Counted from the first letter of the stretch, positions 1 to 24,071 are shown. The stretch: 24,071 nucleotides of DNA from an uncultured Candidatus Saccharibacteria bacterium (GCA_964429815.1 CAYSCM010000004.1:1-24071), one strand, 5' to 3'. A program made the numbers and translations. The notes: generated by a model from the letters alone, not told the origin.

Positions 1-61
1 GACTCGAACCGAGGACCCACGCTTTACAAAAGCGTTGCTCTACCAACTGAGCTAAGGCGGC
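1..61 (-). tRNA. tRNA-Thr (anticodon TGT), 3' part truncated by window edge
   Basis: Reverse complement of 1-61 reads GCCGCCT-TA-GCTC-AGTTGGTA-GAGC-A-ACGCT-TTTGTAA-AGCGT-GGGTC-CTCGG-TTCGAGTC. This gives an acceptor 5' arm, D-arm, anticodon stem ACGCT/AGCGT with a 7-nt loop (U33 then TGT at 34-36), variable loop and T-arm GGTTCGAGTC. The 3' T-stem and acceptor lie outside the window. Confidence 0.8.
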
Positions 62-10999: not shown

Positions 11000-11054
11000 A
11001 AGCCTCCTCAGGTTTTCGGGGGTAATTATATAACACAAAAAGCCATCTTGTCAA
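11000..11054 (-). promoter_or_regulatory. near-consensus sigma70 promoter for the hydrolase gene (TTGACA - 18 nt - TATAAT, then about 25-nt leader with GAGGAGG)
   Basis: Minus strand reads TTGACAAGATGGCTTTTTGTGTTATATAATTACCCCCGAAAACCTGAGGAGGCTTCCATG. Confidence 0.6.
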
Positions 11055-11074
11055 TCGTACAAAACGGCTTGGTC

Positions 11075-11302
11075 TCAGGATATTTTTCGAAACCGCGGGT
11101 GAAAAGTCCCGTCCGGGCTCTTAGCCTCGCCGAGAAACTCCTCAAGCGGCCGTATCCAAATCTTGCTTACCGGATTTTCATAAAGCGCCTCGTAGACGAC
11201 GAACTCTTTGAGGTCGTCTGCGTGCTTCCCCACCCCGATGAGCCGGTAGCGTCCGCCGGTTTTGACATGTTCGTATAGCTCTCCGGGTATGAGGGGCATC
11301 AT
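11075..11302 (-). CDS. DUF1653-family small protein. Start is the ATGATG at 11297-11302, overlapping the stop of the upstream micro-ORF
   Basis: Matches the DUF1653 pattern (GELYEHVKTGGRYRLIGVGKHADDLKEFVVYEALYENPVSKIWIRPLEEFL...PRF). The longer track ORF (start 11353) begins in the overlapping micro-ORF. Confidence 0.75.
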   Translation of the reverse strand: MMPLIPGELYEHVKTGGRYRLIGVGKHADDLKEFVVYEALYENPVSKIWIRPLEEFLGEAKSPDGTFHPRFRKIS

Positions 11303-11457
11303 TGTGAAAGCTCGTAGGTAAGCGTATCGACAGAGGTCCGTACCGCGCTCCATGAGGATTGCTGGGCAATGAGCGCCTTCCCTGAGAAATACAGTATGCC
11401 GACAAGCACTGAAACGAGAAGGAGCGTGCCGAGGCCGGAATTGACGTTGTGACGCAT
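11298..11457 (-). CDS. unannotated 52-aa single-TM micro-protein (MRHNVNSGLGTLLLVSVLVGILYFSGKALIAQQSSWSAVRTSVDTLTYELSQ), paralog of the adjacent peptide
   Basis: Found by manual translation (below the track's 60-aa cutoff). The ATG lies 3 nt after the stop of peptide 1, and its TGA overlaps the DUF1653 ATG (CAATGATG). It shares VGILYF..K.L.AQ..S.S....VD..L..L.S with peptide 1, with identical length. Confidence 0.55.
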
Positions 11458-11460
11458 ACG

Positions 11461-11619
11461 CTAATGAGAAAGTTTCTGGAGCATCGAATCGACGATAGAT
11501 GCCATGCGGCTAAATGATTCATCCTGCGCCCAGAGTTTATCGGAGACAAAATATAGGATACCGACAAAAACCGCCATCAGGAAGAGAAATATGAATAGCG
11601 GCGCGTGGTCGTGGTCCAT
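11461..11619 (-). CDS. unannotated 52-aa single-TM micro-protein (MDHDHAPLFIFLFLMAVFVGILYFVSDKLWAQDESFSRMASIVDSMLQKLSH)
   Basis: ATG at 11617-11619 overlaps the TAA stop of the transketolase C-terminal gene (TAATG). About 38% identical, ungapped, to the downstream 52-aa peptide. Confidence 0.55.
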   Translation of the reverse strand: MDHDHAPLFIFLFLMAVFVGILYFVSDKLWAQDESFSRMASIVDSMLQKLSH

Positions 11620-12608
11620 TATGGTTTTCGCTCACGTACCTTTTTTATTGCGGCTACGATGTGCGAGATGCCCATGCCGTAATGCTCGATAAGCTCCCTT
11701 GGTGTGCCGGACTGACCGAATCGGTCGCGGACCCCGATAAATTCAATGGGCACCGGAGTGTGCTGTGCGAGCAGTTCAGCGACCGCGCTTCCCATGCCGC
11801 CCGCGATCTGGTGCTCTTCGACGGTCACGACTGCGCCGGCTTCTTCCGCGACAGCACGAAGGAGTTCCCTGTCGAGGGGTTTTATCGTATGAAGGTTAAG
11901 AACGCTTGCTGAAATTTCCCCGTCGAGCTCCCTGGCGGCCATGAGCGCATTGTAGAGGAGCGGCCCTGAAGCGACGACGGCGACCTCCGGCTTCTTCCCT
12001 TTCCATACAAGCGAGGCTCTCCCGATCTCAAACGGGGATTCTTTCGTCGTCATGACGGGCGTTTTCTCGCGGGCAAAGCGCAGGTAGACCGGCCCGGGGT
12101 GCGCGGCTGCAGCGAGAGTCGCCTTCCTTCCCTCCTCTGCGTCGGCAGGGTAGATGACGGTCATGTTTGGCTGGACGCGCATGAGCGCGAGGTCCTCGAG
12201 CGCCTGGTGCGTCGCGCCGTCCGGGCCAACCGAGACGCCCGCGTGCATGCCGCCGATCTTCACGGGAACATTGTTGAGCGAGATGGTGGTGCGTATCTGC
12301 TCGTTGTTGCGTCCGGGAGAAAAGGTCGCGTAGGAGGTGATGAAGGGGATTTTACCGTAATTGGCGAGACCCGAGGCGATCGTCGCGAGGTTTTGCTCGG
12401 CGACGCCTATTTCGATGTAGCGTTTCGGGTACTTCTTTTGAAACTCAAGGGTGCGGGTCGACTCGACCAGGTCCGCGCACAGCGCCACCACACGCTCATC
12501 CTTCTCGGCCGCCTCGAGGAGACCCCTGCCGAAACCCTCCCGCGTCGCGGCCTGCTCGACGTCTTGGTCGAAGAGCTTTGGATTAAGTTTGGCGTCTCTG
12601 ATCATCAT
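11619..12608 (-). CDS. transketolase, C-terminal subunit (pyrimidine-binding and C-terminal domains) of a split transketolase
   Basis: Tkt Pyr domain motifs (IASGLANYGKIPFITSYATFSPGR, GVSVGPDGATHQALEDLALMR). Its start lies 1 nt after the tkt-N stop. Confidence 0.93.
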   Translation of the reverse strand: MMIRDAKLNPKLFDQDVEQAATREGFGRGLLEAAEKDERVVALCADLVESTRTLEFQKKYPKRYIEIGVAEQNLATIASGLANYGKIPFITSYATFSPGRNNEQIRTTISLNNVPVKIGGMHAGVSVGPDGATHQALEDLALMRVQPNMTVIYPADAEEGRKATLAAAAHPGPVYLRFAREKTPVMTTKESPFEIGRASLVWKGKKPEVAVVASGPLLYNALMAARELDGEISASVLNLHTIKPLDRELLRAVAEEAGAVVTVEEHQIAGGMGSAVAELLAQHTPVPIEFIGVRDRFGQSGTPRELIEHYGMGISHIVAAIKKVRERKP

Positions 12609-12609
12609 G

Positions 12610-13467
12610 TCATTGGTGCTCGCTTGTGAGTTTGCCGTTCAAGGTCCGAATGGCATCAATGAAGCGCTTCCCTTCCTCCGGCTTCGGGGGTTTTCCATGC
12701 CATTCGTAATTGAATTCGATCTCGGCCACACCCTTTCCGGGGATGGTGTGCGCGATGATGACGGTCGGCTTTTCATAAATAGCCTTCGCCTCTTCGGTAG
12801 CATCGACAAAGGCGCGTATATTGTGCCCGTCGATCTCAAGAACGTGCCAATTGAACGCTCGGTATTTGTCTGCGAGCGGCTCAAGCGGCATGACGTTCTC
12901 GGTCATGCCATCGATCTGGATATTGTTGCGGTCGATGACGGCCGTGAGGTTGTGAAGCTTGTTGTTGCCGGCGAACATGGCGCCCTCCCAGGTGTTGCCC
13001 GCATCGTGCTCGCCGTCGCTTAGAAGACAGTAGACGCGGAATTTCTCTCCGTCCATGCGCGCTCCGTAGGCGTAGCCGGCGGCTTGAGAGAGCCCGGAGC
13101 CCAAGGGCCCCGAGGTCGTCTCGATCGCCGGAAACCGCATGCGCTCGGGGTGTCCCTGGAGGCGCGAGCCGAATTTCCGGAGCGTCATGGCCTCATCGAG
13201 GGAGAGGTAGCCGGCGTGCGCCATGGTGGCGTAGCGTATCGGCGTTATGTGGCCGTTGCTTAATATGAGCCGGTCGCGCTCCGGCCAGTCGGGACGCTTC
13301 GGGTCGTGGTTGAGGATGTGGAAATAGAGAGCGGTGAATATGTCCGCCATACCCAAGGGCCCCGCGGTGTGGCCAGAACCGGACGCGACGAGCATGGAAA
13401 TGAGCGTCTCGCGGATCTCATTGGCCTTTTTTTGTAGCTCCTGTGCTTTTTCTTCGGTGATGGACAT
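12610..13467 (-). CDS. transketolase, N-terminal (TPP-binding) subunit
   Basis: TPP-binding motifs (SGHTAGPLGMADIFTALY, LLSDGEHDAGNTWEGAMFAG, GHPE). ATG lies 1 nt after the rpe TAG stop. Confidence 0.93.
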   Translation of the reverse strand: MSITEEKAQELQKKANEIRETLISMLVASGSGHTAGPLGMADIFTALYFHILNHDPKRPDWPERDRLILSNGHITPIRYATMAHAGYLSLDEAMTLRKFGSRLQGHPERMRFPAIETTSGPLGSGLSQAAGYAYGARMDGEKFRVYCLLSDGEHDAGNTWEGAMFAGNNKLHNLTAVIDRNNIQIDGMTENVMPLEPLADKYRAFNWHVLEIDGHNIRAFVDATEEAKAIYEKPTVIIAHTIPGKGVAEIEFNYEWHGKPPKPEEGKRFIDAIRTLNGKLTSEHQ

Positions 13468-13468
13468 G

Positions 13469-14116
13469 CTAAGCCGCCGTGAGGGTCGTTATCGCGTGCG
13501 CGATATCGGGGTCTTCAAAAATGTAACTGCCGGACACGAGGCGATTCGCGCCGGCCTCGACAAGGCGGTGCGCCGTTTTTGCATTCACCGCCCCGTCAAC
13601 GCTTATTGTAGCTTCCGGATGTGTCGCTCTCCAAGCGGCGACTTTTCGGAGTACGCGCTCGTCGAACGGCTCTCCTTGGTAGCCGATATGGGCGATGCCC
13701 ATGAATTGCACAACATCGATGAGCGGGAGGTACGGCTCGAGCGTGGCGCTTTCGGTATCGTTGAGGATAGCAAGCCCGAGCTCAAGCTTCGGGTAGGTAG
13801 CCCGCACGTACGCAAGGGTATTTTTAAGCTCTCTGGTCCTCTCGATGTGAAAGATGAGGCGCCGTGCGCCCGCCGCTATCCAATCGTGCGCTGCCCTCCC
13901 AGGATCGGCGACCATGAGGTCGACCTCGAATGGCATGTCAAGCGCGATGGCAGGAAAATCCCCATGAGCGCCCCGAAAGGGCCAGCTCTTCGGGGCGACG
14001 TAGAGCCCGTCCATGATATCGAGCTGGACGAAGCTAACGTAGCGCCTGACGCGCGCGATTTTCTCGCGAAGATCCGCGAGGCTCTTGGGCATGATGGCGG
14101 GAACAACTTCCGCCAT
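13469..14116 (-). CDS. rpe: ribulose-phosphate 3-epimerase. Likely start is the ATG at 14114-16 (MAEVVPAIMPKS...), 2 nt after the pilin stop; the track start at 14146 would overlap the pilin gene by 28 nt
   Basis: RPE motifs (VQLDIMDGLYVAP, DLMVADP, HIERT, VQFMGIAHIGYQGEPF, ISVDGAVN). Confidence 0.9.
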   Translation of the reverse strand: MAEVVPAIMPKSLADLREKIARVRRYVSFVQLDIMDGLYVAPKSWPFRGAHGDFPAIALDMPFEVDLMVADPGRAAHDWIAAGARRLIFHIERTRELKNTLAYVRATYPKLELGLAILNDTESATLEPYLPLIDVVQFMGIAHIGYQGEPFDERVLRKVAAWRATHPEATISVDGAVNAKTAHRLVEAGANRLVSGSYIFEDPDIAHAITTLTAA

Positions 14117-14118
14117 GG

Positions 14119-14658
14119 CTACCAACAGTTTGGATAACTTGACCACGCCGCCGGGAAGGCCGTATCCGCCCCGACCCTACAGATGGTGGAAGCTGACCCT
14201 ATCGGGGTAAAAACTTCAAACTGTATCTTGATGCCGTAGCCTTTTACGTTGCCGTTGGAGTCGAGCTCGTAGGCGTACTGGTAGTCGGCCTGACCTGGCT
14301 GGCACGTGCCTGCTGTACATAGCGGGTCGTGCGGCGCGGCGGCCGACGTGTAGTAGGTGGATAAACCTGCACCCGAGCAGGTAACGAGGTTCGAAAGGGT
14401 ATCCGGCGCGAGAGAACCCTTAAGCGACGAGCACGAGACGTTCCGTATGGTCGGGTAGGCATGGTTTGCCGTGAAGTAGTCTTCAAGCGCATTTTGCACC
14501 GAGTGTATCTCTTGGGCACGTCTCGCGTCCCTCGCCTTCTGACGAGATGACGCGAGCGACGTGAGCACGATGCTCCCCAGGAGCCCAATGATGGCGACGA
14601 CCACTAAAAGCTCTATAAGGGTGAACCCTCTGCCTGCGACAAGACGAGGAAACGTCAT
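14119..14658 (-). CDS. type IV pilin/pseudopilin-like protein (class III prepilin signal)
   Basis: N-terminus MTFPRLVAGRG|FTLIELLVVVAIIGLLGSIVL: a G/F cleavage-methylation motif plus a hydrophobic helix with E5. Cys-containing C-terminal domain. Confidence 0.85.
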   Translation of the reverse strand: MTFPRLVAGRGFTLIELLVVVAIIGLLGSIVLTSLASSRQKARDARRAQEIHSVQNALEDYFTANHAYPTIRNVSCSSLKGSLAPDTLSNLVTCSGAGLSTYYTSAAAPHDPLCTAGTCQPGQADYQYAYELDSNGNVKGYGIKIQFEVFTPIGSASTICRVGADTAFPAAWSSYPNCW

Positions 14659-14660
14659 AC

Positions 14661-14849
14661 TCAGCCCCAGAGGGTGTACGCGGTCGCAAGGAGCACGAGG
14701 ATGAGGACGACGATAAGGACCGTCTGCGCTCCCTTCGCGTCCTTGGCAAGACCAAGTTTAATGACGAGCTTGCTTACCCAGCCCAACCGCTCACCCGATT
14801 GCGCCATGCGGTGGCGGAAATCGTTCTCTTCGTAAAATTCTACGGCCAT
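14661..14849 (-). CDS. small membrane protein (62 aa, C-terminal TM helix) encoded between rpiB and the pilin
   Basis: Its TGA stop is 2 nt before the pilin ATG. C-terminal VLIVVLILVLLATAYTLWG is a clear TM segment. Confidence 0.5.
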   Translation of the reverse strand: MAVEFYEENDFRHRMAQSGERLGWVSKLVIKLGLAKDAKGAQTVLIVVLILVLLATAYTLWG

Positions 14850-14878
14850 ATTTCTATTGTATGCCCTCTGAGAAGCCC

Positions 14879-15364
14879 TCAGGAGAGGTTTTCCCCATCC
14901 AGCTTTTCGATGCGACGCAGGTGCCGCGCGTCGCCGGAGAAGCTGTGCTCAAGCCAGAGCCGCAACGCCCTCTTGGCTTCGCTTTCCGTAAGGAAGCGCG
15001 CCCCGAGCGCGAGCACGTTGGCGTCATTATGCTCGCGGGACGACTCTATCATAGAGAGAGCTCTTCCGGACGCATCCGTCTGCTGAGCGCCGGTGTCTGC
15101 GTAAAAAACCGCGGCTCGCACTCCCCGGAGGCGGTTGGCCGCCATGGCCTCCCCCTGCCCTGAGCCGCCGATGATGACCCCGCGAGAGTCGGGGGTGCTC
15201 GAAACGGAGCGGGCCACCTTGAACGCATAGTCAGGGTAGTCATCGCCCAGCACCTTCTCGAACGGCCCCTCGTCATGGACGCTAAACCCTAGGCCTTCGA
15301 CGAAGGAGATGAGCTCCTGCTTGAGGTCGAACCCGGCGTGATCGGAACCGAAGAACACCTTCAT
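14879..15364 (-). CDS. rpiB: ribose-5-phosphate isomerase B (RpiB/LacAB family). True start is the ATG at 15362-64 (MKVFFGSDHAGFDLK...), 1 nt after the gap stop; the longer track ORF is an artefact
   Basis: RpiB signature (GSDHAGFDLK, GVIIGGSGQGEAMAANR, with a Cys-less active-site variant). Confidence 0.9.
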   Translation of the reverse strand: MKVFFGSDHAGFDLKQELISFVEGLGFSVHDEGPFEKVLGDDYPDYAFKVARSVSSTPDSRGVIIGGSGQGEAMAANRLRGVRAAVFYADTGAQQTDASGRALSMIESSREHNDANVLALGARFLTESEAKRALRLWLEHSFSGDARHLRRIEKLDGENLS

Positions 15365-15365
15365 G

Positions 15366-16397
15366 TTAGGGAAGATGTGAGCCGGTCTCAAGGACGTGCA
15401 TGAGCAGGGTATGGGTGTATCCCATTTCGTTGTCGTACCAGGCGAGGACTTTGACAAGATTCCCTCCGACGACCCGGGTGAATGAAAGGTCGGCAAGCGA
15501 GGCGAACGGGCTTCCGACAATGTCAGAGGAGACGATGGGTTCCTCGGTGGTCGCAAAAATACCCTGCCAACGCTTCTCCGCCGCCGCGTCGCGAAGTATC
15601 TGGTTCACTTCTTGTGCTGAAGTATCCCGTTTCGCGACGAACGTTACGTCGACGAGAGAGCCGCAGGGCACCGGCACGCGTATCGCGATGCCGTCGAATT
15701 TTCCAGAGAGCCCCGTGAGCGCTTTGGTGGTCGCTATCGCCGCACCCGTCGAGGAGGGTGTGATGTTTGCCGCTCCCGCTCTGCCGCGCCGCAGGTCGCC
15801 CTTGGCAGGGCTGTCGACGATCGACTGGGTCGCTGTATACGCGTGGACGGTGTTGAGAAGAGCCTTTTCGATACCGAGCGTCTCGTCGAGAACGGCCATA
15901 AGCGGGCTTCCGGCGTTGGTGGTGCAGGAGGCGTTGCTCGTGATATCGCAGGTTTTGAGCTTGTCGGCGTTTATGCCCATGAGGACCGTGGCGGCGGAAA
16001 TTCCCGCCGGTGCATCGTCCTTGACCGGCGCGGAAATGACGACGCGCTTGGCCCCCGCCGTGAGGTGCAGCGCGGATTTTTCGAAGCTGTCGAAAACGCC
16101 GGTCGATTCGACGACGACGTCGACGCTCATTTCGCTCCAGGGAAGCTTTGCCGGATCTTTCTCGGAAAGGTAGCTTATCTCCTTGCCGTCGATGAGCAGC
16201 GCGCCGTTTTTCACCTCGATGGGAAAGGCGCTCTTTCCGTACACGCTGTCGTAGCGCAGGAGGTAGGCCGCATTATGGATATCGCCGAGGTCGTTTATGG
16301 CGACCAGTTCCATCTCCTTTTTCTCGCGGGAGAGTTTTACGAACGCCCTACCGATGCGGCCGAATCCATTGACCGCGACGCGTACTTTTTTTGCCAT
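15366..16397 (-). CDS. gap: glyceraldehyde-3-phosphate dehydrogenase (type I)
   Basis: NAD-binding VAVNGFGRIGR and catalytic ASCTTN motifs. A TATACT box lies 6 nt upstream of the ATG. Confidence 0.95.
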   Translation of the reverse strand: MAKKVRVAVNGFGRIGRAFVKLSREKKEMELVAINDLGDIHNAAYLLRYDSVYGKSAFPIEVKNGALLIDGKEISYLSEKDPAKLPWSEMSVDVVVESTGVFDSFEKSALHLTAGAKRVVISAPVKDDAPAGISAATVLMGINADKLKTCDITSNASCTTNAGSPLMAVLDETLGIEKALLNTVHAYTATQSIVDSPAKGDLRRGRAGAANITPSSTGAAIATTKALTGLSGKFDGIAIRVPVPCGSLVDVTFVAKRDTSAQEVNQILRDAAAEKRWQGIFATTEEPIVSSDIVGSPFASLADLSFTRVVGGNLVKVLAWYDNEMGYTHTLLMHVLETGSHLP

Positions 16398-16579
16398 GCA
16401 TTAAGTATACCTCTCTGCCGAAAGACTTTTGTGCACAGCGGAATGTCCAGAGGGTCGTCGGCGCTAGCACCCAACCGAAAAATATTCTGCCGCCGAGCAG
16501 TCCCGCAGGGGCGAACAAGGCGATGAAGCTGAGAGTAGGCTAAACGCTGCGAGCGCTGCGCGCAGGGATATGTTCTTGC

Positions 16580-17812
16580 TCATGACGACTTTTGCTTGGC
16601 GAGACACTCTTCTTTGTACGATGACGGGAGTTCATCGCAGAGGTTGAGAGCCTCGGGGGAGCCGGGATGGAAATTGTACGTCGAGTACGTTATGAGCTCC
16701 TGGTAGCACGTTTCCCCCACTCCCGCCGCCGCCGCGACGGAGCAGAGCGCGACGGAGCGGCCGATGTTGCGCCAGTCGGTCTCGATGAAGCGGGATGCAG
16801 AATTCGCGTAGCACTGCCCTTTCTGTGCGGCGGGAAGTCCTCCGCAGAGCGCTGCGATTCGCTCGGCATCGAAATTGAGCATTGCCGCATTGACGTAAAA
16901 AATGCCGTTGAAGCAGCGACTATATTCTGCCTTGTCGCCGGAAAGCGGTTTACAGAAATCCAGGAGGCCGGAGGGCGTTTGAACGGCAAGGCGGTAGAGC
17001 GGCCAGCTCTCCGTGATGCAGGAAGCATGCTCCTGTCCCGAAAAACGGCTGCAGAAACTCTCGCGCGTCTTGAGCGTCACTTCTTTGCCGCGAATGAGGT
17101 CGAAATCTTCCGGCTCGAGCGGCTGGTAGATCTGCATGAACGCGCCGTCATAGCAGAGGTGCCGAAAATCTCTGCCATCGGAGGAGAGCGCCACGCTACC
17201 GCACAGCGCGAGCGAGCGGTTTATGTTGGCGCTCGTTATGTACATCGTAAGGTGGCCAAGTGCGTGCTCGCAGGTCGCCCGCTCCATTGATGTGGGGTGC
17301 CAATCGGCGGTCGGCTCGCACGCACCGCGAAGCATCGGTTCGAGTTCAGTTATCTTCGCCTCGGGCATGGCATCGGTACGAAAACGCTCCTGGAATGCTC
17401 CGTGAATGCCCCCGTTGCTGCAGATGCCCGAGGGAACGCGATGCACGACCTCGAGCCACTTGCTCGGGTCTTTTGCCGTTTCTTTTTCTGCAAGCTCGTG
17501 ACCCAACACATGACAATACACGAAAGAAGGATCTTCCCGCTGTACGAGCGCACTTACGGCAAAGGCATCCTCCATGGAGAGTCCCTGATCCATGAGCTTC
17601 GGTATTTCCTTGTTGTAGCAGGTCGGGTGGTCCGACGCGGAAGCGCACAACTTCACGACCGCGTCTGCCTTCGACACAAGCACAGAAGATTGCTCAAGGC
17701 CGTAATACCAAAGTGCCGCACCTACAGCGACGACGAGGATGCCGAGCAGGAGTTCGCGACGGCGCGTTTTGGGAAGCGCTAGCGTAGTGCGCATGGCATC
17801 AGTGTAGCGCAT
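16580..17812 (-). CDS. Cys/His-rich membrane-anchored protein, paralog A of a three-gene tandem family (unknown function)
   Basis: N-terminal TM anchor, about 20 Cys, and two copies of a C-x-H-x-x-G-H module (YCHVLGHELAEKE; CEHALGHLTMY...C...C). Its start overlaps the stop of paralog B (TTGATG). The track's TTG start is at 17815. Confidence 0.7.
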   Translation of the reverse strand: MRYTDAMRTTLALPKTRRRELLLGILVVAVGAALWYYGLEQSSVLVSKADAVVKLCASASDHPTCYNKEIPKLMDQGLSMEDAFAVSALVQREDPSFVYCHVLGHELAEKETAKDPSKWLEVVHRVPSGICSNGGIHGAFQERFRTDAMPEAKITELEPMLRGACEPTADWHPTSMERATCEHALGHLTMYITSANINRSLALCGSVALSSDGRDFRHLCYDGAFMQIYQPLEPEDFDLIRGKEVTLKTRESFCSRFSGQEHASCITESWPLYRLAVQTPSGLLDFCKPLSGDKAEYSRCFNGIFYVNAAMLNFDAERIAALCGGLPAAQKGQCYANSASRFIETDWRNIGRSVALCSVAAAAGVGETCYQELITYSTYNFHPGSPEALNLCDELPSSYKEECLAKQKSS

Positions 17813-18858
17813 CAAGGCAGAAGTTTCGGCACGGCGACGTTTGCGGTATTGCGCGCGTACGAGAGGCAGTATGCCTCCTGTTCCCCGCGATACCCGCTAC
17901 AAAGCGTCAGTGCAAGGGGCTTGGTCTCGTCGTTAGTGACAAAAAACGAGTTGGCCGCCATCGAGCGACAGTAGAGCTCGTCGGTGTCGCTCCGGGCAAC
18001 CGCCTGACAAAGTTTTGTCGTCTGCGCGGGATCGAAATGCGACGACTCGGGAGCGACCTCTCCCGCTCCCTCGAAGCAGGCTCGTCGCTCCTCGGCCGCC
18101 TGTCCGGTGCGACAGAAATCCCCGATACGGGAGAAACTTTCGACTCCCGGGCCCCAGAGAGCCGAGAGCCACTGCGGCTGCCAGAAATAGCAGGCCTTCC
18201 CGTATTCGCCGGGCAGGTCATCGCAGGGATATCTATAGTCACCGCCTTCTGGCCGGCGTAGTCGCGCCTGGTCGAGGAGCATGGTCTGAAAGTTGTACTC
18301 CATAAACACCCCGCCGTAGCACCCGCCTATGGGGTCTTTGCGCGGAAGCGATGAACACTCCGCAAGCGCCTTGTCGAGGTCGGCCCGGCTATAGCCGAGC
18401 GATGCCAGGATGCCGTGACCGATACCGTGCTGACAAGAGAGGAAGGTCGTGGGAAGCGCTTCAATGCAACTTTCATTGAGCTTGCCGATGGCGGACGGAC
18501 CTTCGGCAGCTATCGCCTCTCCCAAAAATTCGTGGAAACAGCCGAAGCTGAAGCGCGAATCACACACGGAGAGTGCCGAGTCACCTTGCGTTCGAAATAG
18601 TGCGCCGCCAAAGAGGTGCGCCGACTGGTGCATGGCATCATAGGAGCGGCCTCGATTGTAAGAAACGAGCTCCGCATACGCCTTTTCTCCTCCTGCGGCC
18701 TTGATTCGGCTCTCCCAGTACGCGCTTTCCTCTTTTGTACCGGAAAAAGAGGGCTTCCCGGGCTCTCCTGTGTAGAGCGGCACAAGGTAGTGCTGCGCCG
18801 CCGCTCCAAAGACGACCGCAGCGACAAGACCAGCACCCACGCGAAAAAACGTCCGCAT
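17812..18858 (-). CDS. Cys/His-rich secreted/membrane-anchored protein, paralog B
   Basis: Signal-like N-terminus. Modules HQSAHLFGGALF...C...C and CQHGIGHGILASLGY...C...C align with A and C. ATG lies 1 nt after the stop of paralog C. Confidence 0.7.
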   Translation of the reverse strand: MRTFFRVGAGLVAAVVFGAAAQHYLVPLYTGEPGKPSFSGTKEESAYWESRIKAAGGEKAYAELVSYNRGRSYDAMHQSAHLFGGALFRTQGDSALSVCDSRFSFGCFHEFLGEAIAAEGPSAIGKLNESCIEALPTTFLSCQHGIGHGILASLGYSRADLDKALAECSSLPRKDPIGGCYGGVFMEYNFQTMLLDQARLRRPEGGDYRYPCDDLPGEYGKACYFWQPQWLSALWGPGVESFSRIGDFCRTGQAAEERRACFEGAGEVAPESSHFDPAQTTKLCQAVARSDTDELYCRSMAANSFFVTNDETKPLALTLCSGYRGEQEAYCLSYARNTANVAVPKLLP

Positions 18859-18859
18859 G

Positions 18860-20071
18860 CTATCTCATACTAAAGAGCGCCGCGCTGCAGGAGCGCCGGT
18901 CGTCTCCTTGAAGCGTGCCGCAGATGCGGTCGCGCTTCTTATCGGCAGGAATCAGGAAGTAGGTGGCCGCCTGAAAAAGCTCGCCCGTGCACACGTCGTG
19001 GATAGCCCCCGCTGGTATGCCGGCACAAAAGAGCGCCGCCCCTTTGGGGTCGTTCTCGCCGCCCCAGAAGAGCGACTCGACGACTTGCCGCACGCACCCA
19101 CCCGTCGCCTCATTGGTCTTGCCGAGCGCGCACCAACTATAGACAAGAGCGAGCTTCTCCGGGGGTATCTGGTCGATGACGCGAATATCCCGCGCCATGG
19201 CGAGCGTCGGCAACTCTTTGCCGATGCCGCCGAAGCAGGAGGAGCGGTTTTGGATTTCTTGCGCCGGAATGCTGCTGCAGTAGGAGAACGCCTGGGTGAA
19301 TTCCCTGCCGCCGGGATGGAACAAACTTCCTCCGTTCATTTCAAAAAAGTGCGGGGTGAGGTACACGTAGCACATCGGCTTTACTTCCTCCGGCATGTAG
19401 CTCCGGTCGCACGGCGCAAGCGGGTCGGTCGCGGAGAGATATTTCATGCGCTCCACGGCCCAGAGCGCCTTGTCGTGGTCCCCGCCGCCCGTGAGCTCCA
19501 TGATGGTCCCCGAGACGCACTGCTTGTACTCCTCGTTGAAGCGCTCCGGTGTTCCTACTTTTTTACACAGCGCTATCGCTTTTTTCTCGTCATAGGAGAC
19601 GGAGGCAAGCACGCCGTGCCCGAGCCCGTGGAAGCACATGCCGTATGCTCCGGGGCCTCCGGGCGCCTGCTGGCAAGCCTGCGCGATGAGCGGGAGCGCC
19701 GCTTCCCCATTGTCATAAAAAGCACCGACCACGATGGCGTGTGAGCAGGCATTGCGAAATTCCTGCGTGCATATTTTGATACCGTCCACTCCTTGTTGCT
19801 TGTACAAAACGTCCCCGACGACGTGACCAAGGAGATGCAGGTCCGTGTCTGGCGGGAGAGCGGCTCGTCGCAGTATCTCGTAGGCGTACGGGGCCCCCTT
19901 CGCCTGCGCCAGTTTCGTGAAGTAGTCCTGGAGAGTGTGGAAAGAACCTTTGAAGTGCGAAAGGCTCTTGACTTCGGGGTACGCGAATACCGGAAGCGCC
20001 TTGGTGACGAGAATCGCGCCCGCGACCAGAAGGATTCCGAGGAGCATAGTGAGCCTTGAGGAGCGGTTCAT
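18860..20071 (-). CDS. Cys/His-rich membrane-anchored protein, paralog C. Start is probably the ATG at 20069-71 (MNRSSRLTMLLGILLVAGAILV...); the track start at 20263 would overlap the divergent plus-strand gene
   Basis: TM anchor plus modules LHLLGHVVGDVLY...C...C and CFHGLGHGVLASVSY...C...C. Confidence 0.7.
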   Translation of the reverse strand: MNRSSRLTMLLGILLVAGAILVTKALPVFAYPEVKSLSHFKGSFHTLQDYFTKLAQAKGAPYAYEILRRAALPPDTDLHLLGHVVGDVLYKQQGVDGIKICTQEFRNACSHAIVVGAFYDNGEAALPLIAQACQQAPGGPGAYGMCFHGLGHGVLASVSYDEKKAIALCKKVGTPERFNEEYKQCVSGTIMELTGGGDHDKALWAVERMKYLSATDPLAPCDRSYMPEEVKPMCYVYLTPHFFEMNGGSLFHPGGREFTQAFSYCSSIPAQEIQNRSSCFGGIGKELPTLAMARDIRVIDQIPPEKLALVYSWCALGKTNEATGGCVRQVVESLFWGGENDPKGAALFCAGIPAGAIHDVCTGELFQAATYFLIPADKKRDRICGTLQGDDRRSCSAALFSMR

Positions 20072-20141
20072 GCGCCTATTGTAGCGGAAATAGTGCTGGA
20101 ATTCCCTGGACAAAGGTGCGGCGGCGGGAGAATATCTTGTC

Positions 20142-21134
20142 ATGCCAGGGCGCAGCAGCTTCGTCACTATTCTCCTCCTTGCGGCAGGGCTCGCGATCGG
20201 TGCGACCATCGAACACGCATACGCGAACAAAAAAGGCCCGCTCTCTTCAACGGCGGCGATCAATTGCCAGACCCACTACCGCTTTATAAATCCCTACCCC
20301 GATTGCGAGATCTTTGAGGAAAAAGCCGGGAAGCTCGACAAGCTCGATGGCATCATTACGACGCAGGTGGCACAGCTTCAAAATAGGAGCGGCATTGGTC
20401 ACATTTCGGTATGGGTGCGCGATCTTACTACACTACGATTCGCGGCAGTGAATGAAAACGAGCTGTATACTCCCGCAAGCCTTCTCAAGCTCCCTCTCAT
20501 GATCGCGGTTTACAAGTACGCCGAGCTCTATCCCGACGTCCTCGACAAAAAAGTCCTCTACGCCTCCGTCTTTGATAAAGACCAGAGCGGTTATTTCATA
20601 CCTCCTTCGGTCAGCATCGAGCTTGGACAAAGTTACACCGTTAACGAACTCCTTGAGCATATGATCAGGTATTCAGACAATGAAGCGGCGAATCTCCTTG
20701 CAAGCGTCATCGATCCTTCCTTTGGCGAAGCAGTGTATCTCGATCTTGGGATCAAGGTGCCCAATGACGACGGCAAAACGAGCCTTTTTATGACCGCAAA
20801 ATCCTATGCGGCCATTCTGCGCACCCTATACAACAGCTCGTACCTATCTCGAAAATACTCGGACAAAGCCCTTTCCCTTCTTTCGCAAACCGAATACAGC
20901 GGCGGGCTTGTCGCCGGAGTACCAAAGGGTACCGTGGTGGCCCATAAGTTCGGCGAACGAGGGGATAAAAACATGCTTGGCATTACCACGAGCATATTCC
21001 TCAACGATTGCGGCATCGTATACGCAAAGCAGCAACCCTACTCGGCTTGCATTATGACCGAAGGGATCGACTTTGACGCACTCCAAAAAGCGATCGGTGA
21101 AATCTCCAAGACCGTCTACGAGAATATCTATTAA
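20142..21134 (+). CDS. membrane-anchored class A beta-lactamase-like serine hydrolase (Beta-lactamase2 / PBP-fold)
   Basis: SxxK (ASLLK) and SDN (YSDNEAANLL) motifs in the correct order and spacing. The third box reads HKFG instead of KTG. N-terminal TM segment. Transcribed divergently from paralog C. Confidence 0.75.
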   Translation: MPGRSSFVTILLLAAGLAIGATIEHAYANKKGPLSSTAAINCQTHYRFINPYPDCEIFEEKAGKLDKLDGIITTQVAQLQNRSGIGHISVWVRDLTTLRFAAVNENELYTPASLLKLPLMIAVYKYAELYPDVLDKKVLYASVFDKDQSGYFIPPSVSIELGQSYTVNELLEHMIRYSDNEAANLLASVIDPSFGEAVYLDLGIKVPNDDGKTSLFMTAKSYAAILRTLYNSSYLSRKYSDKALSLLSQTEYSGGLVAGVPKGTVVAHKFGERGDKNMLGITTSIFLNDCGIVYAKQQPYSACIMTEGIDFDALQKAIGEISKTVYENIY

Positions 21135-21156: not shown

Positions 21157-24071
21157 TTAGGGGGTTGTCGTGGCGGTTGAGCTTGCGGTGCTCGTTGTTG
21201 CTGGCGTGCTCGACGCGTGCGGGTCGAGGACGTTCACGGTTCGGGTCGCAGTCCCTACATTACCCGCTTGGTCGGTCGCACTGTAGAGGATGGTGTGGGT
21301 TGCGGCGACGGAAGTATCCAGGGTGAGCTGGCTTTGATCCATGAGAGCTCCTCCGTCGAGCGAGACTTTATAGCCGAGATTTACGCTCACGTTGTCGGTC
21401 ACGGTGGCGCCCAAGTCAGAGTAGACGTCACCGATGTTGACGTTCGCTGGATTGTTGCCGTTTATGGTGACGGTCGGGGCGATGGTGTCGGTCGAGGTCG
21501 AGGTGGTCGTGGTCGTTGATGCAGTTGTTGATGTGGTTGTTGATGTGGTTGTAGTCGATGTCGCGGCCGGCGTGCTCGTCGAACCGCTCGGCACACTCGT
21601 GCTTCCTGTGCCGCTCGTGCTTCCTGTGCCGCTCGAAGAGTGTCCAGCACCGGCGAGGAGCGAGTCGAGCTGACTCTTAGTGATGCAGGTCTCTCCAGAG
21701 CTATCCGAAACACAGAGCTTGTCCGTGTGAACTTCCTTGGCGAAGACCTTGTTGAAGGCGCCGATTGCGGCGTAGACCCCTTCGCTAAAGGCTCGGTAGA
21801 CGGCAACTCCTGCGGCGTTGATAGCGTCCTTGAGCGCTTGCGAGGCGTCGGCGAACGCGGCGACCCATGGTGTTGAAGTGGATGTGCTCGAGCTTGCAGC
21901 CGTGAGTTCGATCGGTGTCGTCGTGCCGAAGAACGGCTTAATGCTGTGGTAAATATCCTGAACACCCTCAATGAGATACGGCGTGAAGCCTGCGTAGTTG
22001 AGAGAAAGAGTGCCCCAGTCGCTCGTGTAGACGAGGTCAGGCAAAATTTGCTGAACATCTTGGGCGAGGAAGCCGGTGTGGGTCGGAGAGCCTGGGTCTT
22101 CCGCTTTCCAGTTGTAGGTCACTGGCTTGAGGGCCAAGAGTGCATTGAGCGAAGATGAGAGGCTATTGATATTGGTCTTGAGGCGTGCGTCAGACTGACA
22201 TGAGATAGAGCCAGCCGCCGGGGTGATGAAGCACACGCCGGAGGCGTTGCCGAAGGCTGCCACCGCTTTGTTGGTAGAGATGGAACTGTTGCCGACCACG
22301 AAGATGGTTGACGAGGAGGTTGTCGTACCAACACCGACGCTACCTTGGGCGCCGCCGACGATGAAGTTTGGCGTCGAGCTGCCGCGGCGAGCTACGACGA
22401 AGCCCGGGTCATTATTGCCTATCTCAACGCTGAGCGTGCCCCATGGAGTAGAGGAGGCGATTCCCACAAAGCCAGCGTTTCCGGTGGAGACAAGCGAGAG
22501 GGTCGAAGAAGCGGCGGTTGTCGTCGCATAGGTGCTGTCTGAGCTCGTGGCGAAGTAGAGGTTGCCGCCGGCGGAGCGCACTGCCCAGTGCTTGAGGTTC
22601 ACCCCTCCCAAGGGGTCGGTGAGGATGAGTTGCGGATAATTTGAGACAAGCTGGAGGCGGGCTGCATTGGCGGATGTGGTGGCGGTCGAGGTGCCGATGA
22701 CGACGTTGCCCGCGGCATTGATGGAAAGGGCGGTCGAAGTGGCATTGAGAGAGTCCGAGGAAGTGCCGACGGTGAAGATGCCGTTTTGGGCGCCAATGAG
22801 CCAGTGTTTGTTGTTGGCGGCGGCGTTCGTCTTAGTGATGACGATGAAGGGCGTAGCCGAGGCGACTTGGAGGGTCCAGTTTGCCGTGGTCGTGCCGATG
22901 CCCACATTGCCGCCGGTTGAGATGGTGAGGAGGTTGCCACCCGAGGTATTGCGGTAGATCGTGAATGAGCTATCTGAAATTCCCACGTTCTTGCCGATCA
23001 TCCAGGCGTTGTTGTCCGAGTCCTCGGCAGACTTGAAATGGAGCGCTGCTTCACCGTTCACGGCATTGCTGGTGATGTGAAGCTGGCCCCAAAACGATGT
23101 TCCCTTGATCGAAAGCCTGGTCTCCGGTGCGCCTGTACCGATTCCCACGTTCCCGGTTGAATCTACCGCGAGAACTGACTGCGTATTCGTCGCGAATGTC
23201 GAGTCCGAGCTCGTGGCGATATAGAAGCCACCACCCACCGAGCGGAAACTCCAATGCTTGAGGTTTGCTCCCGCAGTGTTGTCCGTGAGCGTGAGCTGGG
23301 GACCGGTTGAGGAGGCGACCTGGAGGGCCCACTGGGGAGAGGTGGTGCCGATGCCGACCTTGAGGGCGGTGTTGGGTGAGATGGCGAGGGTGTCGGTCGT
23401 CGACGTGGCCCATTTTGAGTTGCTAGTGCCCGAGCCTGCACCGCAGGCACTCCCCGTCCCCGAGACCGCACCGGCCCCCGAGATCTGGAGACACTGCGTT
23501 GAGCCGGAGCCGAGACCGGAGATGGTGAGTGCGGTGGTAGAGGCGCGGCCGGTGGTATCTATTTGAAAGAGAGTCGAGGTGCTGTTGAGCGAATCCGAGC
23601 TCGTACCGATGCGGAAGGTGCCATCGATATTGGAAAGAAGCCAGTGCTTGTTCCCTGCTGATGCCGCGGTATCCGTAATAGCAATGTAGGGCGTGGCGGA
23701 GGCTACCTGGAGTGACCAGTTGGGGGTCGTGGTGCCGATGCCGAGACTTCTCGTTGAGTTGAAGTATAGTGAGTTCCCGATATTGAGAAGTGAACCGTAA
23801 ATATTGGTTGAGGAGGCGGTGGTGGAGAAGAGGTTGGTGGTTGTCGCGGAGGTGCCGGTGGCGTTCACGAAGGTGACGTTCTGCAGGGTGGTGGAGCCGT
23901 AGGCGATGACGTTTCCGGCAGAGGCGGTGTTGGTCACAAAGAGCGAATTGAGGGTCGAGGAGGCGGCGACCTGGAGGTAGGTGAGGGCGACGGTGCCGGT
24001 GGCGTCGATGGAGAGTGCGGAGACGGAGCTGGTGGCGAAGGTGCCCGCCGAGCTCGTGGCGAGGTAGAGGT
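21157..24071 (-). CDS. very large Thr/Ser-rich fibre/surface protein (partial; N-terminus beyond the window) with repeated about 65-aa modules, an internal Peptidase_S74 intramolecular-chaperone (self-cleaving) domain, a Thr-rich linker and a C-terminal DUF5011/Ig-like domain
   Basis: The frame stays open upstream of the track's GTG at 23937, to 24071. Repeats of the form GN(V)GIGTTTP.W.LQVAS...KHW........SSDS. S74 motif SDARLKTNI...LKPVTYNWK...GFLAQDVQQILPDLV. C-terminal TINGNNPANVNIGDVYSDLGATVTDNVSV...YSATDQAGNVGTATRTVNV matches DUF5011. Confidence 0.7.
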   Translation of the reverse strand, partial: LYLATSSAGTFATSSVSALSIDATGTVALTYLQVAASSTLNSLFVTNTASAGNVIAYGSTTLQNVTFVNATGTSATTTNLFSTTASSTNIYGSLLNIGNSLYFNSTRSLGIGTTTPNWSLQVASATPYIAITDTAASAGNKHWLLSNIDGTFRIGTSSDSLNSTSTLFQIDTTGRASTTALTISGLGSGSTQCLQISGAGAVSGTGSACGAGSGTSNSKWATSTTDTLAISPNTALKVGIGTTSPQWALQVASSTGPQLTLTDNTAGANLKHWSFRSVGGGFYIATSSDSTFATNTQSVLAVDSTGNVGIGTGAPETRLSIKGTSFWGQLHITSNAVNGEAALHFKSAEDSDNNAWMIGKNVGISDSSFTIYRNTSGGNLLTISTGGNVGIGTTTANWTLQVASATPFIVITKTNAAANNKHWLIGAQNGIFTVGTSSDSLNATSTALSINAAGNVVIGTSTATTSANAARLQLVSNYPQLILTDPLGGVNLKHWAVRSAGGNLYFATSSDSTYATTTAASSTLSLVSTGNAGFVGIASSTPWGTLSVEIGNNDPGFVVARRGSSTPNFIVGGAQGSVGVGTTTSSSTIFVVGNSSISTNKAVAAFGNASGVCFITPAAGSISCQSDARLKTNINSLSSSLNALLALKPVTYNWKAEDPGSPTHTGFLAQDVQQILPDLVYTSDWGTLSLNYAGFTPYLIEGVQDIYHSIKPFFGTTTPIELTAASSSTSTSTPWVAAFADASQALKDAINAAGVAVYRAFSEGVYAAIGAFNKVFAKEVHTDKLCVSDSSGETCITKSQLDSLLAGAGHSSSGTGSTSGTGSTSVPSGSTSTPAATSTTTTSTTTSTTASTTTTTSTSTDTIAPTVTINGNNPANVNIGDVYSDLGATVTDNVSVNLGYKVSLDGGALMDQSQLTLDTSVAATHTILYSATDQAGNVGTATRTVNVLDPHASSTPATTSTASSTATTTP
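21515..21631. repeat. in-frame tandem DNA repeats inside the fibre gene: 12-nt units (GTTGATGTGGTT-like x4, 21515-21562) and an 18-nt unit CTCGTGCTTCCTGTGCCG x2 (21596-21631), encoding TSTTT and SGTGST repeats
   Basis: Direct tandem copies are visible in the sequence. They encode the low-complexity Thr/Ser/Gly linker. Confidence 0.7.

Follow-up and report, generated by a model that had tools for sequence, protein, structure and literature searches.

A membrane microprotein–pilin cassette with a putative promoter box of its own in a conserved Paceibacterota carbon-metabolism cluster

A type IV pilin gene and a small membrane-protein gene lie among enzymes of carbon metabolism in the DNA analyzed here (a stretch of 24,071 nucleotides, hereafter the window). 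We consider that this region is probably a conserved Paceibacterota carbon cluster which holds, between rpiB and rpe, a self-contained pilin cassette with a box of its own, and that its genes are expressed unit by unit with the location of the cassette set by expression. Ten minus-strand genes span 16397 to 11075 in the order gap, rpiB, a 62-aa transmembrane (TM) protein, pilin, rpe, tktN, tktC, peptide 1, peptide 2, and DUF1653, and the nine junctions measure, in gene order, 1, 29, 2, 2, 1, 1, −1, 3, and −4 nt. When we re-derived the gene identities, the strand, and all nine junctions from the sequence, they agreed with the first-pass annotation, and Pfam and NCBIfam supported the families. 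The features are as follows.

16404 to 16409, minus strand: −10 box TATACT, read from the sequence, predicted leaderless-type promoter P_gap, ending 6 nt ahead of the gap ATG
15366 to 16397, minus strand: gap, type I glyceraldehyde-3-phosphate dehydrogenase, 343 aa (Pfam Gp_dh_N 117 bits, Gp_dh_C 170 bits)
14879 to 15364, minus strand: rpiB, ribose-5-phosphate isomerase B, 161 aa (PF02502 131 bits)
14856 to 14861, minus strand: −10-like box TACAAT, predicted internal cassette promoter, ending 6 nt ahead of the ATG of the 62-aa gene
14661 to 14849, minus strand: 62-aa tail-anchored membrane microprotein, most likely the pilin partner, a divergent member of the 'MADIQFEEEQ...GIVSTDKQAEYVLL-TM' family
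14119 to 14658, minus strand: type IV pilin/pseudopilin precursor, 179 aa (leader MTFPRLVAGRG/FTLIE, Glu+5, six Cys)
13469 to 14116, minus strand: rpe, ribulose-phosphate 3-epimerase family, 215 aa (PF00834 93.8 bits)
12610 to 13467, minus strand: tktN, transketolase N-terminal (TPP-binding) subunit, 285 aa (PF00456 189 bits)
11619 to 12608, minus strand: tktC, transketolase pyrimidine-binding and C-terminal subunit, 329 aa (PF02779 144 bits, PF02780 89 bits)
11461 to 11619, minus strand: peptide 1, 52-aa single-TM microprotein, copy 1 of the post-tktC family
11299 to 11457, minus strand: peptide 2, 52-aa single-TM microprotein, tandem paralogue of peptide 1
11075 to 11302, minus strand: DUF1653 protein, 75 aa (PF07866 49.5 bits, cutoff 23.5, residues 9–72)
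11030 to 11070, minus strand: predicted intrinsic terminator (scan and RNA fold), 12-bp stem and U-run, 3′ end of the unit

The matches of the cluster enzymes to PF02502, PF00834, PF00456, PF02779, PF02780, PF00044, and PF02800 are all far over cutoff. RpiB also exceeds the cutoff of NF004051 (145.6 versus 135), and the gap product scores slightly below that of the equivalog TIGR01534 (364.6 versus 367.2 bits) and Rpe below that of TIGR01163 (101 versus 212.6); because both equivalog models score below cutoff, the exact substrate specificity of Rpe and GAPDH is putative and assigned at the family level. The longest ORFs of rpiB (TTG at 15556) and rpe (GTG at 14146) run into their upstream genes, and the starts re-picked in the first-pass annotation, 15364 (1 nt past the gap stop) and 14116 (2 nt past the pilin stop), are upheld both by homology and by independent gene calls on the identical public contig. 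The annotated CPR-like origin is likewise supported, with homologues in Patescibacteria/Paceibacterota; tktN is 68 to 81% identical to 80 Paceibacterota loci. DUF1653 starts before peptide 2 has ended, its ATG and the peptide 2 stop overlapping by 4 nt, and a DUF1653 gene also lies downstream of tktC in five related loci (L007, L022, L026, L030, and L033).

To place the locus among its relatives, we compared it with ∼100 related Paceibacterota loci. Some 80 species-level genomes (∼80) keep the core order, and their junctions are short, with medians of 5–34 nt; in this comparison the gap-rpiB-rpe-tktN-tktC core is ancestral and widespread. The small gene and the pilin gene recur in exactly this order between rpiB and rpe in many related genomes, so that synteny is conserved.

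The pilin reads MTFPRLVAGRG/FTLIELLVVVAIIGLLGSIVL and carries a complete prepilin motif, with a basic leader, Gly, Phe+1, Glu+5, and a hydrophobic stretch. It matches PF07963 (27.5 bits, cutoff 21.2) and TIGR02532 (30.4 bits, cutoff 16.3), and its homologues are Patescibacteria pilins. An AF2 model (pLDDT 73) has a long N-terminal helix (residues 14–65) and a β-sheet of four strands; a Foldseek search of this model against the PDB gave no match at E ≤ 0.001, and the top-ranked matches, with E values of only 0.09 to 0.7, include gonococcal, TCP, and C. difficile pilins. None of the functional equivalogs was matched above cutoff: GspG (TIGR01710) scored 48.6 bits versus 88.85, with the alignment confined to residues 10 to 71, and ComGC (NF040999) scored 25.6 bits versus 75. 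No ComEC or PilB/C/D uptake or assembly genes were found among the window ORFs scanned.

The three small ORFs (the 62-aa gene and peptides 1 and 2) have no Pfam or NCBIfam family match, and the 62-aa protein has none in the PDB either; its AF2 model consists of two helices (5–31 and 38–61). A profile of the MADIQFEEEQ family comprises 173 clusters, with 288 representatives at E ≤ 1e-10, and the family is undescribed, being without a Pfam model and annotated only as hypothetical. A pilin gene begins within −4 to +15 nt after the small gene in 22 of 24 distinct family copies (2 nt in the window). From this adjacency, together with the predicted coupling and co-duplication of the two genes, we infer that the pilin most likely has, in the small protein, a membrane partner dedicated to it.

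The positions of these gene pairs point to a discrete two-gene cassette that is also found at other junctions. Seven blind family look-ups placed it five times between rpiB and rpe, once between rpsI and grpE, and once alone, with pilin as the next gene in all seven; the rpiB-rpe junction accounts for ∼70% of the copies sampled blind, and others lie at rpe-tktN, at tktN-tktC, or in ribosomal/chaperone clusters. A metagenome scan put 9 of 13 informative loci at the rpiB-rpe junction and found pilin directly past the small-protein match everywhere except on one truncated contig (L099). Among the GTDB loci, cassettes occur between rpiB and rpe in L037, L040, L048, L061, L068, and L072 and between rpe and tktN in L037, L072, and L078, and pilins occur between tktN and tktC in L006, L055, and L068. 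Outside the pentose phosphate cluster, cassettes follow dnaJ, lie between ribosomal genes and grpE, or stand alone (L106), although such examples are few (L095, L098/L104). The pilin and microprotein are not loose parts of a metabolic operon, a correction to the first-pass annotation. A neighbor-joining tree fits both one old insertion with losses and repeated insertions. We rejected an integron attC-like or repeat-flanked mobile cassette: the borders have no conserved repeats, only short imperfect ones as chance would give, and the rpe side has no room for a recombination site because its junction is 2 nt.

The other small membrane proteins of the first-pass annotation are also present, and they belong to a different family from the pilin partner. 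The peptide 1 ATG and the tktC stop have one base in common, and an ungapped 52-aa alignment of the two peptides shows 38% identity (E 1e-10); the N-terminal NVNSxLGTL motif of peptide 2 agrees with relatives. An HMM of this post-tktC family matches ∼38 loci, almost always 5 to 45 nt past tktC; the family has 85 clusters in a large database, and three of three blind context look-ups fell after tktC. By sequence and position, peptides 1 and 2 are two tandem copies of a membrane microprotein of ∼55 aa that is conserved downstream of tktC.

We then considered how these genes might be expressed. The TACAAT box sits within the 29-nt spacer, which is the sole real intergenic gap of the cluster, and TATACT followed by 6 to 8 nt and ATG also occurs in the window at PfkB, FBA, L25, and a 461-aa gene (7–8 nt). 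These four genes, gap, and the 62-aa gene all have a −10 hexamer 6 to 8 nt before the start and no Shine-Dalgarno (SD) site; the published signature of leaderless genes is TANNNT ∼10 bp before the start codon (PMC3160421). The leaderless starts at gap and the cassette are predictions from the position of the −10 box. In the same window scan, both a box and a GGAG-type SD were absent before rpiB, pilin, rpe, tktN, tktC, peptide 1, peptide 2, and DUF1653. In relatives, such a box precedes 59% of gap starts, and a −10 box lies a few nucleotides before the ATG in 42% of rpe and 51% of tktN genes. Small-gene starts carry one in 19 of 24 distinct relatives versus 15 of 149 rpiB/tktC starts (10% background; Fisher p 5e-12), leaving five family copies without a box. 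The box-to-ATG distance across the family ranges from 6 to 14 nt, and some transcripts would therefore carry short leaders rather than none. The cassette box in the window is a 5/6 match only, with neither a recognizable −35 nor a TGn extension; a generic sigma-70 scan, which found no promoter of 9/12 or better ahead of the 62-aa gene, did not pick it up, and the chance of such a box at 6 to 8 nt is a few percent for any single gene.

The minus strand from 16397 to 11075 yielded no terminator-like sites, all such sites falling outside, and no hairpin with a T-run was found after pilins in relatives. The predicted terminator after DUF1653 folds with a dG of −16.6 kcal/mol (z −4.65), a stability that none of 200 shuffles matched, and its loop and tail hold the perfect TTGACA-18-TATAAT promoter of the next gene (11054–11025).

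In our proposed explanation, the region would be a gap-rpiB-rpe-tktN-tktC-microprotein cluster in which a cassette made up of a −10 box, the tail-anchored protein, and the pilin has been inserted between rpiB and rpe, with the small protein and pilin produced jointly across their 2-nt junction. Many genes would begin at, or a few nucleotides past, the 5′ end of the transcript (TATACT, 6–8 nt, ATG), and for this reason would carry no SD site. Because rpe and tktN often keep their own boxes in relatives, the cluster there would be a chain of short overlapping units without terminators. Of the ten genes here, only gap and the 62-aa gene that opens the cassette carry a box, and so the cassette promoter, supplemented by read-through from P_gap, would drive all eight genes that begin with the 62-aa ORF and end with DUF1653. 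Downstream genes would be translated by termination-reinitiation over the 1- to 4-nt junctions, which would explain the extreme packing, and the downstream pentose phosphate genes probably depend on both read-through and translational coupling. A pilin that needs strong constitutive expression would ride in constitutively transcribed neighborhoods, in keeping with the recurrence of the cassette in this and other housekeeping clusters (rpoA/ribosomal, grpE-dnaK-dnaJ); its location would then follow from expression and not from a biochemical tie to pentose metabolism. In cultured Paceibacteria, pilin genes rank with the most highly expressed of those encoding signal peptides (PMC10936435).

The first-pass annotation had described one tightly coupled operon and tentatively attributed its mix of functions to genome compaction. 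On that reading P_gap drives all ten genes, TACAAT is a chance match, and the mix is a by-product of compaction, which we regard as unlikely. The shared strand, the 1- to 4-nt junctions, and the absence of any internal terminator-like site fit such an operon, as do the negative sigma-70 scan and the imperfect box with no −35. However, TATACT-type boxes occupy the homologous position in most relatives, including out-of-cluster cassettes that need a promoter of their own, and the sole long spacer coincides with the position of the box. Compaction alone also fails to predict, or account for, the repeated presence of the cassette at this one junction in many species. The operon therefore retains its strand, short junctions, and freedom from terminators, but given the box before the 62-aa gene and the rpe and tktN boxes of relatives, it is probably not driven by a single promoter. 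That the adjacency is due to chance and has no biological meaning, the pilin being one of many CPR pilin genes, is very improbable. Pilin paralogues are indeed numerous in Patescibacteria (4604 homologues at E ≤ 0.001 among 8000 candidates scored), but the position is kept across species-level genomes and independent metagenomes, and pilins are enriched in the cluster relative to its flanks: in 80 species-level relatives, 13 pilin ORFs lie in the cluster versus 2 in the flanks (∼12-fold denser; binomial p 6e-5, uncorrected for phylogeny, with locus counts that are not phylogenetically independent).

A functional coupling, in which the pilin belongs to a competence-like pilus scavenging DNA or nucleosides, is a further alternative, which we think unlikely. 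The preference of the cassette for the rpiB-rpe junction speaks for it, and so do the pilin ORFs present in 944 kb of relatives, all 15 of which are inside the cluster or directly next to it. [quoted passage not shown] Yet the cassette also occurs in unrelated housekeeping contexts and alone, no pilin lies in the cluster in roughly half, or more, of the relatives whose genomes carry the post-tktC family, the pilin is not assignable to ComGC or any functional subtype, and ComEC and PilB/C/D are absent from the window ORFs scanned. Moreover, competence is dispensable for growth in the sole genetically tested Saccharibacterium (PMC11665869). We favor location by expression over a link between the pilus and pentose metabolism.

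A bolder scheme, which we offer as speculation with little chance of being right in full, would make the MADIQFEEEQ microprotein a hitherto unrecognized, obligatory partner of a CPR type IV pilin class, for example, a cytoplasmic-face chaperone or gatekeeper. Its rpiB-rpe home would be a regulatory link of a scavenging or attachment pilus to pentose/glycolytic flux in host-dependent Paceibacteria, leaderless promoters and stop-start coupling would form a minimal regulatory logic, and the post-tktC microprotein would be a further membrane part.

Type IV pili play a central part in how CPR bacteria live as epibionts (attachment, motility, and possibly DNA uptake), and what is known of them comes nearly all from Saccharibacteria; this locus defines a widespread, discrete pilin cassette in Paceibacteria and adds another conserved membrane microprotein, this one linked to transketolase. 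It also offers a testable picture of how expression may work in reduced genomes, with chained short leaderless units and coupling in place of lost promoters. If true, a pilin-metabolism link would tie host or DNA scavenging to energy metabolism; if there is only hitch-hiking on expression, the locus still shows which sites in a minimal genome come to house highly expressed surface genes. For annotators, small ORFs of 52 to 90 aa here are genuine conserved genes.

The central glycolytic gap operon of Firmicutes is cggR-gapA-pgk-tpi-pgm-eno. The locus resembles such operons as a gap-led, same-strand cluster of carbon enzymes and differs in that gap is followed by non-oxidative pentose phosphate enzymes with a split transketolase, no regulator gene is present, there are probably several internal leaderless-type promoters, pilin and microprotein genes are embedded, and a convergent PfkB-FBA block lies downstream. 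In translational coupling, termination is followed by reinitiation at ATGA or TAATG overlaps; the junctions of −4, −1, 1, 1, 2, 2, and 3 nt without an SD before the downstream genes are alike, whereas here coupling would join unrelated products, pilin to rpe, and appears to replace promoters that relatives retain before rpe and tktN. Leaderless units of Actinobacteria and Deinococcus (PMC3160421) share the −10 hexamer 6 to 8 nt before ATG and the lack of an SD; the consensus here differs (TATACT, often GGTATACT), and the boxes of the locus and its relatives lie inside a gene cluster at 10- to 50-nt spacers with no terminators between, an arrangement for which we found no reports for Patescibacteria in the literature searched. 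Type IV pilins of the PilA, GspG, and ComGC class share the class III signal peptide, Gly, Phe+1, Glu+5, and hydrophobic helix, and the locus pilin has a Cys-rich C terminus and, in its AF2 model, a predicted long helix and β-sheet head. It differs in scoring below equivalog cutoffs and having no significant structural neighbor (best Foldseek E 0.09), and in its setting, a metabolic cluster away from assembly genes, where it is strictly paired with the upstream microprotein.

The cluster consists of ten genes on the minus strand, from gap to DUF1653. Re-reading the sequence gave exactly the nine junctions claimed in the first-pass annotation (1, 29, 2, 2, 1, 1, -1, 3, and -4 nt), and its shorter, re-picked starts for rpiB and rpe, whose mechanical ORFs are longer and run into the upstream genes, match the beginnings of the Pfam alignments as well as the independent gene calls on an identical public contig. 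With their Pfam/NCBIfam assignments, the genes are:

16397-15366, minus strand: gap, GAPDH
15364-14879, minus strand: rpiB, RpiB
14849-14661, minus strand: 62-aa ORF, no match
14658-14119, minus strand: pilin, prepilin N-methylation motif
14116-13469, minus strand: rpe, Rpe family
13467-12610, minus strand: tktN, split transketolase
12608-11619, minus strand: tktC, split transketolase
11619-11461, minus strand: peptide 1, no match
11457-11299, minus strand: peptide 2, no match
11302-11075, minus strand: DUF1653, DUF1653

All homologues of the pilin, like all 80 top-ranked tktN loci taken from species-level genomes, belong to Patescibacteria, mostly to Paceibacterota/Parcubacteria (e.g., Kaiser-, Adler-, Azam-, Yanofsky-, and Lloydbacteria). 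When the window proteins were compared with the 80 loci by tblastn, gap-rpiB-rpe-tktN-tktC was colinear in nearly all sufficiently long loci, with approximate median junctions of 5-34 nt and insertions of >150 nt at 14%-26% of junctions; this core cluster is ancestral. Synteny with the relatives extends upstream to a surface protein with Peptidase_S74 and Ig-like domains and downstream to a convergent PfkB gene, followed by FBA, L25, an SLT-like protein, L31, and RF1. The window's surface protein is large (21157-23937, minus strand), combining Peptidase_S74, an intramolecular chaperone, with bacterial Ig-like domains; such a protein also lies upstream of the cluster in related loci L084-L087 and L107, and one relative's copy matches an intein-splicing domain. 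Upstream of gap (16580-20263, minus strand) lie genes of 411, 348, and 467 aa in succession, none with a Pfam match. L007, L016-L018, and L074 each have a homologue of the 411-aa protein (32-53% identity) in the equivalent place; in L084-L087 and L103, gap is adjoined upstream, at ~100-700 nt, by a Y1_Tnp gene (PF01797, IS200/RAYT-like), whose strand varies among cassette-bearing relatives and in whose place the window has the unannotated 411-aa gene. A tRNA gene at 1-61 (minus strand; Rfam, 44 bits) is truncated by the window edge and for that reason received no ARAGORN call.

The 62-aa ORF and the pilin form a cassette, which we recognized by listing the contents of cluster insertions and then with an HMM of the small protein. 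Its layout is a 61-100 aa protein gene with a pilin gene immediately downstream. The small protein carries the N-terminal motif M-A-D-I-Q-F-E-E-E-Q, a conserved segment, (F/L)xRLVLATGIVSTDKQAEYVLL, and a C-terminal transmembrane helix; the window copy is a short, divergent member, similar to the copies in L048 and L061. In its predicted structure (pLDDT 69), helices span residues 5-31 and 38-61, the latter being the membrane anchor, which fits a tail-anchored protein whose conserved acidic N terminus would be cytoplasmic. The pilin model (pLDDT 73) combines a helix over residues 14-65 with a sheet of four strands; Foldseek against the PDB gave no match at E<=0.001, with known type IV pilins among the weak top matches, and the GspG and ComGC equivalog models were not reached.

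Within the GTDB set, the cassette occupies the rpiB|rpe junction in L037 (two tandem copies), L040, L048, L061, L068, and L072, and L057 keeps a remnant there without the pilin. At rpe|tktN it is found in L037 and L072, and L078 has a pilin with a small-gene remnant; at tktN|tktC, L055 and L068 have a pilin without a detected partner. At the same junction, four Adlerbacteria-like loci (L006, L018, L107, and L108) have a gene for a protein of 150-186 aa, which in L006 and L018 shares, over its final ~40 residues, the 'GLVKTEQQANIVL + TM' module typical of the 62-aa family. The gene after it encodes a pilin in L006 and L108, and L018 has none. We read this protein as a longer variant of the partner at another junction. 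These longer proteins, the 62-aa protein, and peptides 1 and 2 had no significant Pfam, NCBIfam, or PDB-sequence match.

A profile search with the small-protein family returned 173 clusters at 90% identity, all from Paceibacterota, labeled "hypothetical," and with zero Pfam domains. An exhaustive HMM search yielded 288 representatives at E<=1e-10 and, with a looser cutoff of E<=1e-3, 2448, some of which may match through the transmembrane helix alone. We then looked up the neighborhoods of seven members picked solely by the length of their contigs: five were at gap-rpiB-[small + pilin]-rpe-tktN-tktC, one was between rpsI and grpE-dnaK, and one stood alone, and a pilin adjoined the small gene in all seven. 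Metagenome DNA was scanned with a narrower family alignment (A2), since the complete one (A1) was too divergent, and this choice skews the sample to one subclade; among its 15 loci, nine were demonstrably at rpiB|rpe, two were too short for judgment, and four lay elsewhere (one after dnaK-dnaJ, one between the rpoA block and grpE, and two in other contexts). A pilin directly followed the small-protein match everywhere except on one truncated contig (L099). The commonest site of the cassette is that of the window, rpiB|rpe. Stringent pilin ORFs numbered 13 inside the cluster (331 kb) versus 2 in the flanks (613 kb; binomial p 6e-5), in a test where the events are not phylogenetically independent and both flank ORFs adjoin the cluster.

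Since 22 of the 24 distinct small-gene copies have a pilin downstream (the exceptions are the remnant in L057 and the second of the L082 copies), at junctions of -4 to +15 nt, we regard small gene and pilin as one unit, which has undergone tandem duplication in L037, L088, and L097 and sits at varied junctions. Related genomes carry the same cassette at opposite ends of grpE-dnaK-dnaJ, after dnaJ or before grpE (L095 versus L098/L104), which indicates that the cassette moved recently. An integron-like or transposon-like mechanism was dropped, the search for flanking repeats having given chance-level matches only. Most of the window's cassette lies between the arms of a 15-nt imperfect inverted repeat (14101-14115 and 14812-14826, 87% complementary), one at the rpe start and the other within the 62-aa gene; since several similar pairs occur within the same 1.2 kb, chance is the probable cause.

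Peptides 1 and 2 belong to a second family, of ~55-aa single-pass membrane proteins. They share 38% identity across all 52 residues (E 1e-10) and represent a tandem duplicate. Members lie 5-45 nt beyond the tktC stop in ~38 loci, with a single exception at +1129 nt; three of three blind look-ups placed them between tktC and the convergent PfkB, and the 85 clusters in a large database are every one hypothetical. We rejected the idea that they are Flp-type or other pilins, for lack of a G/xxxxE(Y) processing motif and of any Pfam match. DUF1653 lies downstream of tktC in five further loci.

The first-pass annotation had read all ten genes as one operon. The short junctions stood, and a scan of the coding strand found no terminator-like site within the unit; the reading as one transcription unit probably needs correcting for predicted internal promoter boxes. 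In the 70-nt sequences preceding the small gene at all distinct loci, 19 of 24 copies (12 perfect) have a -10-like hexamer (TATACT/TATAAT/TACAAT) whose end is 6-14 nt from the ATG, versus 15 of 149 rpiB and tktC starts by the same test (Fisher p 5e-12). Other starts in the relatives also bear the box (gap 59%, rpe 42%, and tktN 51%, 35 perfect), frequently as GGTATACT at 6-8 nt. Spacers downstream of the pilin in relatives (10-55 nt) often hold the next gene's box, and no hairpin with a T-run was seen in them. Published work gives TANNNT ~10 bp before the start codon as a mark of leaderless genes (PMC3160421). TATACT could alternatively be a translation signal, which we judged less likely than a promoter because it fits the -10 consensus, often as GGTATACT or TGnTATACT, and because the same hexamer lies ~30 nt upstream in relatives' leadered gap genes.

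The window has boxes at six starts: TATACT at 6 nt before gap (16404-16409) and at 7-8 nt before PfkB (8708, plus), FBA (8144, minus), L25 (7233, minus), and a 461-aa SLT-like gene (6489, minus), and TACAAT at 6 nt before the 62-aa gene. The TATACT starts have no Shine-Dalgarno site, and GGAG(G) replaces the box at a hydrolase gene (10997), a 101-aa gene (8612), and a 219-aa gene (4838), which suggests two initiation modes, TATACT-ATG and GGAG(G), in a single CPR genome. Neither a box nor a GGAG-type Shine-Dalgarno site precedes rpiB, the pilin, rpe, tktN, tktC, either peptide, or DUF1653 in the window. We infer that in the clade short leaderless-type units would follow one another along the cluster, with no terminators between them. 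Because just two boxes are left in the window's cluster, everything between the 62-aa ORF and DUF1653 inclusive, eight genes in all, would rely on the cassette promoter, read-through from gap, and stop-start coupling.

At the 3′ end, a 12-bp hairpin with a U-run directly follows the DUF1653 stop (-16.6 kcal/mol, z -4.65 by RNA folding). A perfect TTGACA-18-TATAAT promoter sits in the loop and tail of this hairpin, so that the terminator and the promoter of the following gene, a cell-wall hydrolase whose start is led by GGAGG, have the same 46 nt (11025-11070, minus strand) in common. The spacer upstream of gap is 182 nt; a terminator-like site within it, at 16500-16487, was dropped as the 5′ boundary, its fold being no better than that of shuffled sequence (z 0.02). 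Rfam detected no regulatory RNAs in the cluster.

A neighbor-joining tree of tktN and tktC disperses the cassette-bearing genomes inside one large Kaiserbacteria-like clade, with cassettes at other junctions in the Adlerbacteria-like clade and L078 and the window as a separate branch (low resolution). The cassette may be either an old insertion repeatedly lost or one inserted repeatedly. [quoted passage not shown] We consider this link improbable and favor an expression-driven or historical cause, since the cassette is also found in ribosomal-protein and chaperone clusters. Of the signal-peptide genes of cultured Paceibacteria, those for pilins are in the group with the highest expression (PMC10936435).

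Full-text searches of the literature turned up no account of pilin cassettes within the pentose-phosphate cluster, none of the two microprotein families, and none of leaderless expression by Patescibacteria. The novelty appears to lie in the conserved cassette, together with the partner family and the position that the cassette prefers; the pilin, the central-metabolism enzymes, the -10 boxes, and the coupled ORFs are of known kinds.
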